From the NCBI RefSeq assembly GCF_056712565.1, contig NZ_CM160072.1: a DNA stretch of 64,000 nucleotides, one strand, 5' to 3'. Made by a program: the position numbers and the translations under genes. Of this stretch, positions 49,953-55,548 are shown piece by piece. The notes beneath the pieces were generated by a model, which saw nothing but the letters and a program-made list of their open reading frames with translations, made no database searches and was not told where the DNA came from. Every line of letters begins with the position of its first letter. Position 1 is the first letter of the stretch.

Positions 49953-51991
<2,039 letters not shown>

Positions 51992-52837
51992 ATGGCTGAA
52001 GCGCAAAATGCTCCCCTGCTGCCGGGATACTCGTTTAACGCCCATCTGGTGGCGGGTTTAACGCCGATTGAGGCCAACGGTTATCTCGATTTTTTTATCG
52101 ACCGACCGCTGGGAATGAAAGGTTATATTCTCAATCTCACCATTCGCGGTCAGGGGGTGGTGAAAAATCAGGGACGAGAATTTGTCTGCCGACCGGGTGA
52201 TATTTTGCTGTTCCCGCCTGGAGAGATTCATCACTACGGTCGTCATCCGGAGGCTCACGAATGGTATCACCAGTGGGTTTACTTTCGTCCGCGCGCCTAC
52301 TGGCATGAATGGCTTAACTGGCCGTCGATATTTGCCAATACCGGTTTCTTTCGCCCGGATGAAGCGCACCAGCCGCATTTCAGCGACCTGTTTGGGCAAA
52401 TCATTAATGCCGGACAAGGGGAAGGGCGCTATTCGGAATTGCTGGCGATAAATCTGCTTGAGCAATTGTTACTGCGGCGCATGGAAGCGATTAACGAGTC
52501 GCTCCATCCACCGATGGATAATCGGGTACGCGAGGCTTGTCAGTACATCAGCGATCACCTGGCAGACAGTAATTTTGATATCGCCAGCGTCGCACAGCAT
52601 GTCTGCCTGTCGCCGTCGCGTCTGTCGCATTTGTTCCGCCAGCAGTTAGGGATTAGCGTATTAAGCTGGCGCGAGGACCAGCGCATCAGTCAGGCGAAGC
52701 TGCTTTTGAGCACCACCCGGATGCCTATCGCCACCGTCGGTCGCAATGTCGGTTTTGATGATCAACTCTATTTCTCGCGAGTATTTAAAAAATGCACCGG
52801 GGCGAGTCCGAGCGAGTTTAGGGCAGGTTGTGAATAA
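51992..52837 (+). CDS. araC: Arabinose operon regulator AraC, C-terminally shortened (281 aa instead of 292)
   Basis: ORF 51941..52837 trimmed to ATG 51992 ([35 protein letters not shown]...); ends ...[12 protein letters not shown]; the missing tail EKVNDVAVKLS-stop is found 1.8 kb downstream at 54663..54698. Confidence 0.9.
52826..52834. repeat. Left copy of the 9-bp direct repeat GGTTGTGAA flanking the araC-yabI insertion
   Basis: Exact 9-mer also present at 54654..54662; both copies lie in the araC codons Gly-Cys-Glu. Confidence 0.7.
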
Positions 52838-53351
52838 TAAGAAAGAAGGGGGGGAACCCCCTTGCTTTCTTCATCTGACGTTATTTATATATTTCACGGG
52901 GGATTAATTTTAGTTATTTTTAGTTGAATCGTTTTACCTGAATTATTTTTTTTCTTGATAAAATATCGACAACGATTTCTTTTTGTAAAAATAAAACGAA
53001 GGCTTATGTATCGGGATACCCATCATGAACATATTGTCCGGTTGCATCAGGAGAATATATCAAGCGGTTTGTTCATCGTAGGAACACCACATTGAGCGGT
53101 TATGGCAGGCACTTCACGCCACCATAAATGCCGTTCGATGTGGCAGTTGTTGAAAAAAGTACGGCATTCTATGAAAAACGCCAGTTACTCCCTCAGAGGA
53201 GAACATGGTCTGGCAAAAGTGTAGCGGCATCAGGCGCAGCTATCTTTGTAAATTCATTCATAAAATGAATTGTATACAAAAAAATATTGAAAAATAATAT
53301 TTTTCCTTATTGATATTATTTGCTATACGTTTTTTTTGAGGGGAGATTGTG

Positions 53352-54200
53352 ATGAGCAAACGTAACGATATTACTGATGGAATATTTGCAACAACGAAAA
53401 AGTATGGATTAGTTTATACCGAAGAGTTAGGTTGGATCGATTTGGGGCATGCTCAGGGACAAGATGCCAGAATATTAAAAAGAAAATTGGAGCAAGAACA
53501 TTTTTCAACATATTACGATGAATTTCATGATTGGTATTTTCCTGTTGATTATCATCAGGAAATGGGAATTCGGAAAAAAATATTAGGAGTAGATCTTACA
53601 TTTCATACCGGTGTTTATACGAAGGTTATGGTTCGTTCATGTCTTTCACCCACTCTTAAAGCAAGAGTTGCCTTAACGTTAATGTATGGAACTGCGAAGA
53701 GGTTTGAAGCATGGCAAAACTCATTTATTTTTAACTGGTATACTGATAGCGGATTTAGTGCAGAAGATTTAGTCTCAGACTTGATTGGTTTTTATCGTGT
53801 ATTTGGAACAGGCCCCGATCCACTTTTATTGGCAAAACCTTTATCTTACACAAAAGCCTTACAAATATGGGATACATATGGAGCGCCAGGGAATTTTAAA
53901 AATACTGAGTTTACGCCATTCTTATTTACAACCCATCCTCCTTTTAAAAAAAATCAACTAATAAAAAAGAAGCTTCCAGAATGGTTAAATTATATAAAGC
54001 CATTAGATGAGTCTTTTTCAATATTGTTATATAATCAATATAATAATAGACCTGTTACTAATTATTATAAAGATAAAAACAGAATAAATCATGAGTTGTA
54101 TAGTTCATTATCAAGTTCGGGAGCTATAAAGTTTTCAGAATCTCCCTTTGAAAGACCGCTTTTTCTTTTCTTAAACCCTCATTATCCGCACAGGTCGTGA
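53352..54200 (+). CDS. Hypothetical protein, 282 aa, no signal peptide or TM segment (island gene A)
   Basis: ORF 53349..54200; ATG 53352 preferred over GTG 53349 (SD gaggggag 7 nt upstream); MSKRNDITDGIFATTKKYGLVYTEELGWIDLGHAQG...; I cannot assign a family from sequence alone. Confidence 0.6.
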   Translation: MSKRNDITDGIFATTKKYGLVYTEELGWIDLGHAQGQDARILKRKLEQEHFSTYYDEFHDWYFPVDYHQEMGIRKKILGVDLTFHTGVYTKVMVRSCLSPTLKARVALTLMYGTAKRFEAWQNSFIFNWYTDSGFSAEDLVSDLIGFYRVFGTGPDPLLLAKPLSYTKALQIWDTYGAPGNFKNTEFTPFLFTTHPPFKKNQLIKKKLPEWLNYIKPLDESFSILLYNQYNNRPVTNYYKDKNRINHELYSSLSSSGAIKFSESPFERPLFLFLNPHYPHRS

Positions 54201-54206
54201 GTAGAG

Positions 54207-54629
54207 ATGTCAAAATATATTTATATTTTATTATCATTTTTAGTTTTATTCTTTATATTTTTCTATGCTTATATCTCATTGATGTCAAAGGAACATCACT
54301 ATACACAGCATGAACTTTCCCCATTTTTCCTTTATACGCCAGAGAGTTTGCGAAATTTGCCAAACATATCAAACGTAGCCGAGTATAGCTATTACTATAA
54401 TGTTGATGATATGCAAACAAGAGTGATTGTTACATGGCGAAATATAGATAACATTTTTCTTCAGAAAGCAAAGCTAATAGATTTTTTGAAAAGAATGGGA
54501 CCGAGTCTACAAAACGATTGTATATGGTTTTTTCATGATAAAAGTGATTATGCAAATAATTTCCAGCGTTATTGCATCATTGAGCACCGTGATTCTCTGC
54601 AGGTGGAATATTTTGAGACTATCGAATGA
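54207..54629 (+). CDS. Hypothetical small membrane-anchored protein, 140 aa (island gene B)
   Basis: Starts 6 nt after gene A stop on the same strand; N-terminal hydrophobic segment IYILLSFLVLFFIFFYAYISL followed by a ~115-aa soluble domain. Confidence 0.55.
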   Translation: MSKYIYILLSFLVLFFIFFYAYISLMSKEHHYTQHELSPFFLYTPESLRNLPNISNVAEYSYYYNVDDMQTRVIVTWRNIDNIFLQKAKLIDFLKRMGPSLQNDCIWFFHDKSDYANNFQRYCIIEHRDSLQVEYFETIE

Positions 54630-54653
54630 TAGGCAGAGGGTGTCTTTTGTGCC

Positions 54654-54662
54654 GGTTGTGAA
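54654..54662. repeat. Right copy of the 9-bp direct repeat GGTTGTGAA
   Basis: Followed in frame by GAAAAAGTGAATGATGTAGCCGTCAAGTTGTCATAA encoding EKVNDVAVKLS-stop, the displaced AraC C-terminus. Confidence 0.7.
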
Positions 54663-54783
54663 GAAAAAGTGAATGATGTAGCCGTCAAGTTGTCATAATT
54701 GGTAACGAATCAGATAATTGACGGCTTGACGGAGTAGCATAGGGTTTGCAGAATCCCTGCTTCGTCCATTTGATAGGCACATT

Positions 54784-55548
54784 ATGCAAGCATTGCTGGA
54801 ACACTTTATTACCCAATCCACCGTGTATTCATTGATGGCGGTGGTGTTGGTGGCCTTTCTGGAGTCGCTGGCGCTGGTCGGTTTGATTCTACCCGGTACG
54901 GTGCTGATGGCGGGGCTGGGAGCGCTGATTGGTAGCGGTGAGTTAAGTTTCTGGTACGCCTGGCTGGCGGGGATTATTGGCTGCCTGATGGGCGACTGGA
55001 TCTCCTTCTGGCTGGGCTGGCGTTTTAAAAAGCCGTTGCATCGCTGGTCATTTCTGAAGAAGAACAAAGCATTACTCGATAAAACCGAACATGCGCTGCA
55101 TCAGCACAGCATGTTCACCATTCTGGTCGGTCGTTTTGTCGGTCCGACGCGTCCGCTGGTGCCAATGGTGGCGGGAATGCTGGATCTCCCGGTGGCAAAA
55201 TTTATTACGCCGAATATTATCGGCTGCTTGCTGTGGCCACAGTTTTACTTCCTGCCGGGGATTCTGGCGGGTGCGGCGATCGATATTCCTGCCGGGATGC
55301 AGAGCGGTGAGTTTAAATGGTTGCTGCTGGCAACAGCGGTGTTTTTGTGGGTTGGAGGCTGGCTGTGCTGGCGGTTATGGCGCAGCGGTAAAGCGACTGA
55401 CCGTTTGAGTCATTATTTGTCCCGCGGTCGTTTGTTGTGGCTGACGCCGTTGATTTCTGCCATCGGCGTGGTGGCGCTGGTGGTGTTAATTCGCCACCCG
55501 TTGATGCCGGTGTATATCGATATTTTGCGTAAAGTGGTTGGGGTTTAG
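54784..55548 (+). CDS. yabI: DedA-family inner membrane protein YabI
   Basis: 254 aa polytopic membrane protein. Confidence 0.9.
   Translation: MQALLEHFITQSTVYSLMAVVLVAFLESLALVGLILPGTVLMAGLGALIGSGELSFWYAWLAGIIGCLMGDWISFWLGWRFKKPLHRWSFLKKNKALLDKTEHALHQHSMFTILVGRFVGPTRPLVPMVAGMLDLPVAKFITPNIIGCLLWPQFYFLPGILAGAAIDIPAGMQSGEFKWLLLATAVFLWVGGWLCWRLWRSGKATDRLSHYLSRGRLLWLTPLISAIGVVALVVLIRHPLMPVYIDILRKVVGV

Follow-up and report, generated by a model that had tools for sequence, protein, structure and literature searches.

The slot between araC and yabI differs in content among E. coli genomes. It is empty, holds a kinase cassette (about 581 genomes) or holds a module of two genes, here called A and B (486 genomes); in K-12 the distance between araC and yabI is just 85 bp. 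The kinase cassette of the ST131 type comprises five genes, which encode a DeoR-HTH/PfkB kinase, a DHDPS-family enzyme, TctC, TctB and TctA. A cassette of the identical type occupies the same araC-yabI place in Klebsiella spallanzanii. The right flank of the ST131 cassette resembles Klebsiella and not K-12, which suggests an import by flanking homology.

Two further systems are relevant for the comparison. In CapCone-DUF4056 proteins of the Lipocone superfamily, the active-site His is preceded by a Gly at a distance of six residues, and a conserved Asp is preceded by the motif S/GxxSxx (bioRxiv 10.1101/2025.01.14.632903). One T6SS effector candidate proposed for Salmonella is a DUF4056 ORF located in a bicistronic unit. 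Among insertion sequences, ISEc33 of the IS630 family (about 1160 bp) is the nearest annotated intact relative, within the E. coli collection, of the relic described below. A search of the literature on the araC-yabI locus itself yielded nothing relevant.

The window is the whole analysed stretch of 64,000 nucleotides (contig NZ_CM160072.1 of assembly GCF_056712565.1). Its positions 52700–54800 are 100% identical to S88, ATCC 11775 and many ExPEC genomes, and the locus is E. coli chromosome of the B2 type. The genes araD, araA and araB on the minus strand are followed by araC, the 514 bp of interest (52838–53351), gene A, gene B and yabI (from 54784 onward) on the plus strand, and then by thiQ and thiP on the minus strand. 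The araC product ends with FRAGCE*, and the K-12 protein is 11 residues longer. Of 5,426 complete E. coli genomes, 486 carry the entire low-GC insert. Judging from strain names, we take the carriers to include the B2 strains S88, UM146, 536, ABU 83972 and Nissle 1917 and the phylogroup F strain SMS-3-5. The mosaic of the 514 bp is the same in 486 of the 486 module-carrying genomes (identity of at least 98%). Thus, this one allele probably has a single origin.

An earlier note on this DNA had described the 514 bp as an AT-rich, non-coding leader upstream of gene A with long A/T tracts and a boundary hairpin. Indeed, no ORF of at least 60 aa overlaps the region on either strand, the longest having 46–53 aa. 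This absence is the chance expectation for non-coding DNA of 36% GC and is therefore no evidence of anything special. The A/T-rich string quoted in that note is located at 53278–53337, ten A or T runs of at least 5 nt were counted, and the hairpin is present at the araC boundary. AT-rich, on the other hand, applies to the two ends only. The overall GC content is 0.36, with 0.30 at 52838–53006 and 0.20 at 53249–53351, but 0.46–0.47 in the middle ~240 bp (53007–53248). For genes A and B the values are 0.31–0.34, for araC and yabI 0.53–0.54, and the neighbourhood has ~53%. This uneven GC content is the first sign of a composite make-up.

The region consists of five pieces rather than one AT-rich leader (Table 1). 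Most probably, it is a scar of recombination and insertion that carries a functional element at each end, and not a dedicated regulatory leader. The gap between araC and gene A is mostly evolutionary debris, real but ordinary. RefSeq already marks its central piece as an IS630 pseudogene, whereas the stub of the kinase gene is unannotated.

Table 1. Features of the araC-yabI region, in positions of the window.
Feature	Position	Strand	Basis or remark
araC, 281-aa form	51992–52837	+	RefSeq annotation of the identical S88 locus; K-12 comparison
Direct repeat of the araC 3' end, left copy (TTTAGGGCAGGTTGTGAA), imperfect, 18 nt	52817–52834	.	
Hairpin, intrinsic-terminator-like on both strands	52839–52871	+	directly 3' of the araC stop codon
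Orphaned AT-rich leader of the DeoR-HTH/PfkB kinase-DHDPS-TctCBA cassette	52872–53006	+	
PfkB-family kinase gene, first 13 codons (MYRDTHHEHIVRL)	53007–53045	+	
IS630-family 3' relic, last ~200 bp, 47% GC	about 53046–53248	+	DNA alignment, tblastn, PGAP pseudogene
Right terminal inverted repeat core (GCGCAGCTATC)	53234–53244	+	ISEc33: GCGCAGCTATT, then TA target
Native gene A upstream region, ~100 bp, 20% GC	53249–53351	+	
Candidate sigma-70 promoter of gene A	53301–53329	+	inferred from phylogenetic footprint
Elements of the candidate promoter: -35 TTTTCC, 17-nt spacer, TG, -10 TATACG	53301–53306 (-35), 53321–53322 (TG), 53324–53329 (-10)	+	
Gene A Shine-Dalgarno region (GAGGGGAG)	53338–53345	+	aligned with GGAG in orthologues
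Gene A, 282 aa, annotated hypothetical protein	53352–54200	+	RefSeq
Gene B, 140 aa, hydrophobic N-terminal helix	54207–54629	+	conserved gene A partner
Direct repeat, right copy (TTTTGTGCCGGTTGTGAA)	54645–54662	.	
Non-coding copy of the K-12 AraC tail codons (EKVNDVAVKLS*)	54663–54698	+	followed by K-12-type yabI upstream region

The hairpin has arms of 15 nt, a calculated RNA ΔG of −21 kcal/mol and a z-score of −4.0, and its stability was equalled by none of 200 shuffled sequences. It passes a terminator pattern scan with five U in eight positions. With Rho-independent terminators it shares the GC-rich stem (7–15 pairs) and the position right after the araC stop. It differs from them in its 3' tail UUGCUUUCUU, which is only moderately U-rich and has no clean U run. 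Probably, the hairpin ends transcription of araC.

The sequence following the hairpin originates from the kinase cassette. A sensitive DNA search matched 52838–53043 to DNA under or upstream of a gene annotated as "PfkB family carbohydrate kinase" with 66% identity, and in ST131-type E. coli and Klebsiella spallanzanii the spacer between araC and the kinase gene is homologous to 52838–53045. In a four-way alignment, the left junction of the cassette at the araC stop, the leader blocks, the Shine-Dalgarno sequence GAAGG, the ATG and 13 codons are kept in the window. Of the 13 N-terminal residues, 10–11 are shared between the window, ST131 (MYRDTRREYIVRL) and Klebsiella (MYRDTRREHIVRL). Everything past codon 13 is missing, and an abrupt change from kinase homology to the IS relic occurs at codons 13–14. 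The kinase codons now open a chimeric ORF of 29 codons (53007–53096 including the stop codon). Compared to the functional ST131 copy, the leader has lost 24, 26, 2 and 7 nt in four deletions (59 nt in total). The deleted 26-nt stretch is T-rich and is retained by both the E. coli ST131 and the Klebsiella leaders. Furthermore, the conserved leader block GTGATAAT reads GTAAAAAT in the window. With 66–81% identity to the ST131 copy, this relic is far more diverged than the flanking genes.

The GC-richer central piece is the 3' end of an IS630-family element. RefSeq (PGAP) annotates an IS630-family transposase pseudogene at 53085–53224, and a sensitive DNA search matched 53047–53253 to IS630-family transposase genes, including that of an intact, plasmid-borne ISEc33. 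The nucleotide identity to ISEc33 is about 72–75% (72.4% in the DNA search). The homology spans about transposase residues 281–343, the stop codon and the right inverted repeat, and tblastn of the last 36 codons of the relic against ISEc33 gave an E-value of 3e-14. Of the transposase gene, only the C-terminal ~63 codons are present, and these are interrupted by an in-frame stop (TGG to TAG) and a deletion of 13 nt; the catalytic region is absent. Thus, the relic derives from a transposase gene but is not a functional one; the element is dead.

The edges of the relic are of different kinds. On the right side, transposase C-terminus and inverted repeat can be recognised by comparison with ISEc33, and the relic stops at the point where ISEc33 does. 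Since the repeat core ends at 53244, the right edge (53244–53250) represents a genuine end of the IS. TA flanks ISEc33, whereas the window has TT at the expected position and TA 4 nt further on. The left edge, at ~53046, is uncertain by a few bases and is an internal break, as the window retains only the last ~200 bp of the element. No left inverted repeat was found for the relic, because its left side is the junction with kinase codon 13. A stronger IS match (84.6% identity) turned out to be another truncated relic. An outward-reading hybrid promoter at the IS end was also considered; the TTGTAA at 53246 is not accompanied by a -10 element at usable spacing. One suggestion of the earlier note was a degenerate gene remnant of the island itself. 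Remnants do occur here, but they are an IS630 transposase tail and the kinase stub of a competing cassette and thus not the island's own.

The A-B module is found in other genera at either end of the ara locus. Gene A has its closest homologues (70% identity) in Citrobacter, where the A-B pair lies between an araC of 281 aa and yabI. The pair lies between araD and polB in Trabulsiella, a Leclercia MAG, Enterobacter ENT03, Buttiauxella and locus L096, so that the link of the module to the ara locus can be at one end or at the other. Modules on the araD side are co-directional with araBAD. Had the 514 bp been a leader proper to such islands, it would be expected to recur with them. Neither its sequence nor its length does: the spacer between araC and gene A measures 97–167 bp in Citrobacter and in locus L095 compared to 514 bp here, and most of the region is unalignable. 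Only the last ~100 bp (53249–53351) align with DNA upstream of gene A in the orthologous modules of Citrobacter, Trabulsiella, Enterobacter and related genomes.

This proximal block contains a candidate sigma-70 promoter. All eight orthologues have the pattern TTGnnn-17-TATAA(A/C/T), and the -10 element is TG-extended in seven of them. The -35 element starts 48–54 nt before the ATG, and the sequence between the hexamers is not conserved. By simple sigma-70 scoring of the 130 nt upstream, at most two positions score higher than this site in any of the sequences. Conserved hexamers with a free spacer in two genomic contexts would be the footprint expected of a promoter owned by the module. The 17-nt spacing, the TG and the near-fixed distance to the ATG across several genera and both contexts are in line with TG-extended sigma-70 promoters. 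The E. coli copy, in contrast, deviates in both hexamers. It reads TTTTCC-17-TGCTATACG and is alone in lacking the G of TTG; C and G occupy the last two positions of the -10 element. It matches the consensus at two of six positions (-35) and at four of six positions without the final T (-10). Thus, the hexamers of this candidate promoter are weaker than those of all eight orthologues. A consensus promoter scan found no site on the plus strand and three on the minus strand, a number equal to the shuffle expectation. The unconserved TGATATTAT at 53311–53319 is a possible alternative extended -10 element.

From the position of the hexamers, transcription of gene A is predicted to start near 53336, with a 5' UTR of about 15 nt. 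The 0.5 kb would therefore not be a leader in the transcript sense. The proposal that the region carries a promoter fits its last ~55 bp, where the candidate footprint is located, and not the rest. Two AT-rich palindromes are present in the promoter-proximal block. The one at 53251–53271 is situated at the IS junction (AATTCATT-N5-AATGAATT); the other one (53283–53311) has arms of 14 nt and overlaps the degenerate -35 element. Conservation in the orthologues was seen for neither palindrome. In DNA of 20% GC they could have arisen by chance, or they could be an operator specific for E. coli.

The left end of the region is of the kinase-cassette type and the right end is of the A-B-module type; therefore, the allele of the window is the two joined at the IS relic. 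The following course of events would account for this. An IS630-family element presumably inserted about 100 bp upstream of gene A and left the promoter intact. The middle of the transposase gene may afterwards have been joined to kinase codon 13, either by a deletion or by illegitimate joining, anchored by homology, with a kinase-cassette allele. Among the 486 E. coli copies, no intermediate allele was found that has an intact IS ahead of gene A or carries the two cassettes together. Two seemingly divergent gene A fragments (P0039 and P0020) represent the same locus with assembly errors. Because the kinase leader has diverged so far from the ST131 copy, the order of events can only be inferred.

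At present, genes A and B would be transcribed from a predicted sigma-70 promoter of their own, located between about 50 and 23 nt upstream of the ATG. This promoter appears to travel with the module in other genera and to be weakened in E. coli by the changes from TTG to TTT (-35) and from TATAAA to TATACG (-10). As promoter and module have 20–34% GC, coating by H-NS is likely, and genes A and B are expected to have a low basal expression. Probably, no function resides in the middle ~375 bp. For expression studies of the two-gene module, which is specific to strains of phylogroups B2 and F, the last ~100 bp would be the relevant part, and a naturally weakened promoter is to be expected.

Three other explanations assign a function to more of the region. 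Transcription of genes A and B might arise further upstream, from an orphaned promoter of the kinase cassette within 52872–53006 that was freed from the lost DeoR-type regulator and still fires. Read-through of the IS relic would then give both genes a 5' leader of ~350–450 nt and offset the weakened native promoter. Such a capture is consistent with the retention of the kinase leader, Shine-Dalgarno sequence and ATG, with the lack of any terminator-like site on the plus strand between 52872 and gene A, and with the degradation of the native promoter compared to all orthologues. Several promoter-like sites also score equal to the native one. On the other side, promoter-like sites are no commoner than in shuffled sequences, one of the conserved leader blocks is altered, and it is because of the four deletions in the leader (59 nt, including the T-rich 26 nt) that promoter capture is considered unlikely. 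An alternative is based on H-NS, which prefers AT-rich, horizontally acquired DNA. In this case, the whole of 52838–53351 would be kept as a nucleation platform for silencing the island. As in xenogeneic silencing, a promoter and two genes of 20–34% GC are embedded in a neighbourhood of ~53% GC; the two AT-rich blocks have 0.20–0.30 GC, genes A and B 0.31–0.34, and A and T tracts are abundant. However, the published high-affinity H-NS motif TCGATAAATT is not enriched (three matches with at most two mismatches versus 1.1 ± 1.1 in shuffles), the central 240 bp have 46–47% GC and the left AT-rich block is debris inherited from another cassette. Furthermore, the Citrobacter spacer is merely 97–167 bp long, and the module is syntenic across genera, in contrast to a recent foreign import. 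A platform maintained for silencing is thus quite improbable. H-NS binding to the proximal 100 bp is plausible from composition alone and is compatible with the scar explanation too.

The earlier note had also named a small RNA. The plus strand folds somewhat better than shuffles (z of −3.0), which is attributed to the local palindromes. A small protein might be encoded by the chimeric ORF of 29 codons from 53007, whose GAAGG ribosome-binding site is intact. This ORF, however, is an accidental fusion of 13 kinase codons with out-of-frame IS sequence. An Rfam scan of 51500–55500 gave no matches at E≤1 on either strand, and the region has no internal terminator on the plus strand. Apart from the promoter-proximal 100 bp, there is no conservation outside the single E. 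coli allele. A small RNA or small protein is therefore the most improbable of all explanations considered here. The scar explanation, with a terminator-like hairpin at one end and the candidate promoter at the other, remains preferred.

Direct repeats are located at the outer boundaries of the module. The left copy is part of araC; its variants are synonymous and are common to the ST131-type cassette. In E. coli, 3 of the 18 positions are not the same in both copies. Equivalent repeats are present in C. freundii and C. farmeri at the same distance from the yabI ATG (139–140 nt). These repeats of 15–18 nt agree between the copies within C. freundii and within C. farmeri and differ between the species. 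The sequence of the right-hand copy in C. farmeri is likewise GAAGAAAAAG. C. portucalensis and L095 have decayed repeats or none, and there are none where the module follows araD. In genera without an insert, araC ends at the 281-aa position, and the stop is followed by related sequence.

These repeats, together with the three alternative contents of the slot, allow a more far-reaching reading, in which the araC stop is a cross-genus site of cassette exchange used by an unrecognised site-specific insertion mechanism, and the scar results from one cassette displacing another. This reading is regarded as very doubtful. If it were true, the 11-residue extension of K-12 AraC would stem from the right-hand repeat copy after loss of the module. 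The 292-aa AraC of K-12 may have originated in this way, by recombination between the repeats, or by a change of TAA to GAA. The scar hints at the source of the longer C-terminus of K-12 AraC, and it dates and orders events at a small hotspot beside the ara operon.

As a conserved pair, genes A and B occur across Enterobacterales and also in Vibrio and Methylobacter, often with several diverged copies per genome. That the module is an active transposon was considered and rejected: paralogues within the same genome are only 65–85% identical, the similarity stops at the operon edges and no direct repeats surround the copies after araD. Gene A belongs to an Enterobacterales-wide family with weak similarity to DUF4056; the Pfam E-value is 0.13 for gene A, which is below the threshold, and 1.3e-6 in family members. 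Apart from this sub-threshold match, searches of Pfam, PADLOC and NCBIfam with genes A and B gave no hit. The AlphaFold model of gene A is confident, with a pLDDT of 86.5 and a pTM of 0.86, and comparison of the predicted fold with the PDB gave no neighbour. G27...H33 and S133-G-F-S136-A-E-D139 are invariant in 45 homologues, and gene A may be likened to CapCone-DUF4056 by these motifs. Gene B encodes a small protein with an N-terminal membrane helix; gene A accompanies it without exception, in Vibrio and Methylobacter as well. It is a reasonable guess that genes A and B are an effector-immunity pair. In some genomes, among them Nissle 1917, Seattle 1946 and relatives, the module of otherwise 1412 bp is 1–2 nt shorter, and its annotation lists three hypothetical proteins where two are usual. 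This points to a frameshift that splits one gene, so that the module would be decaying in some of the strains.
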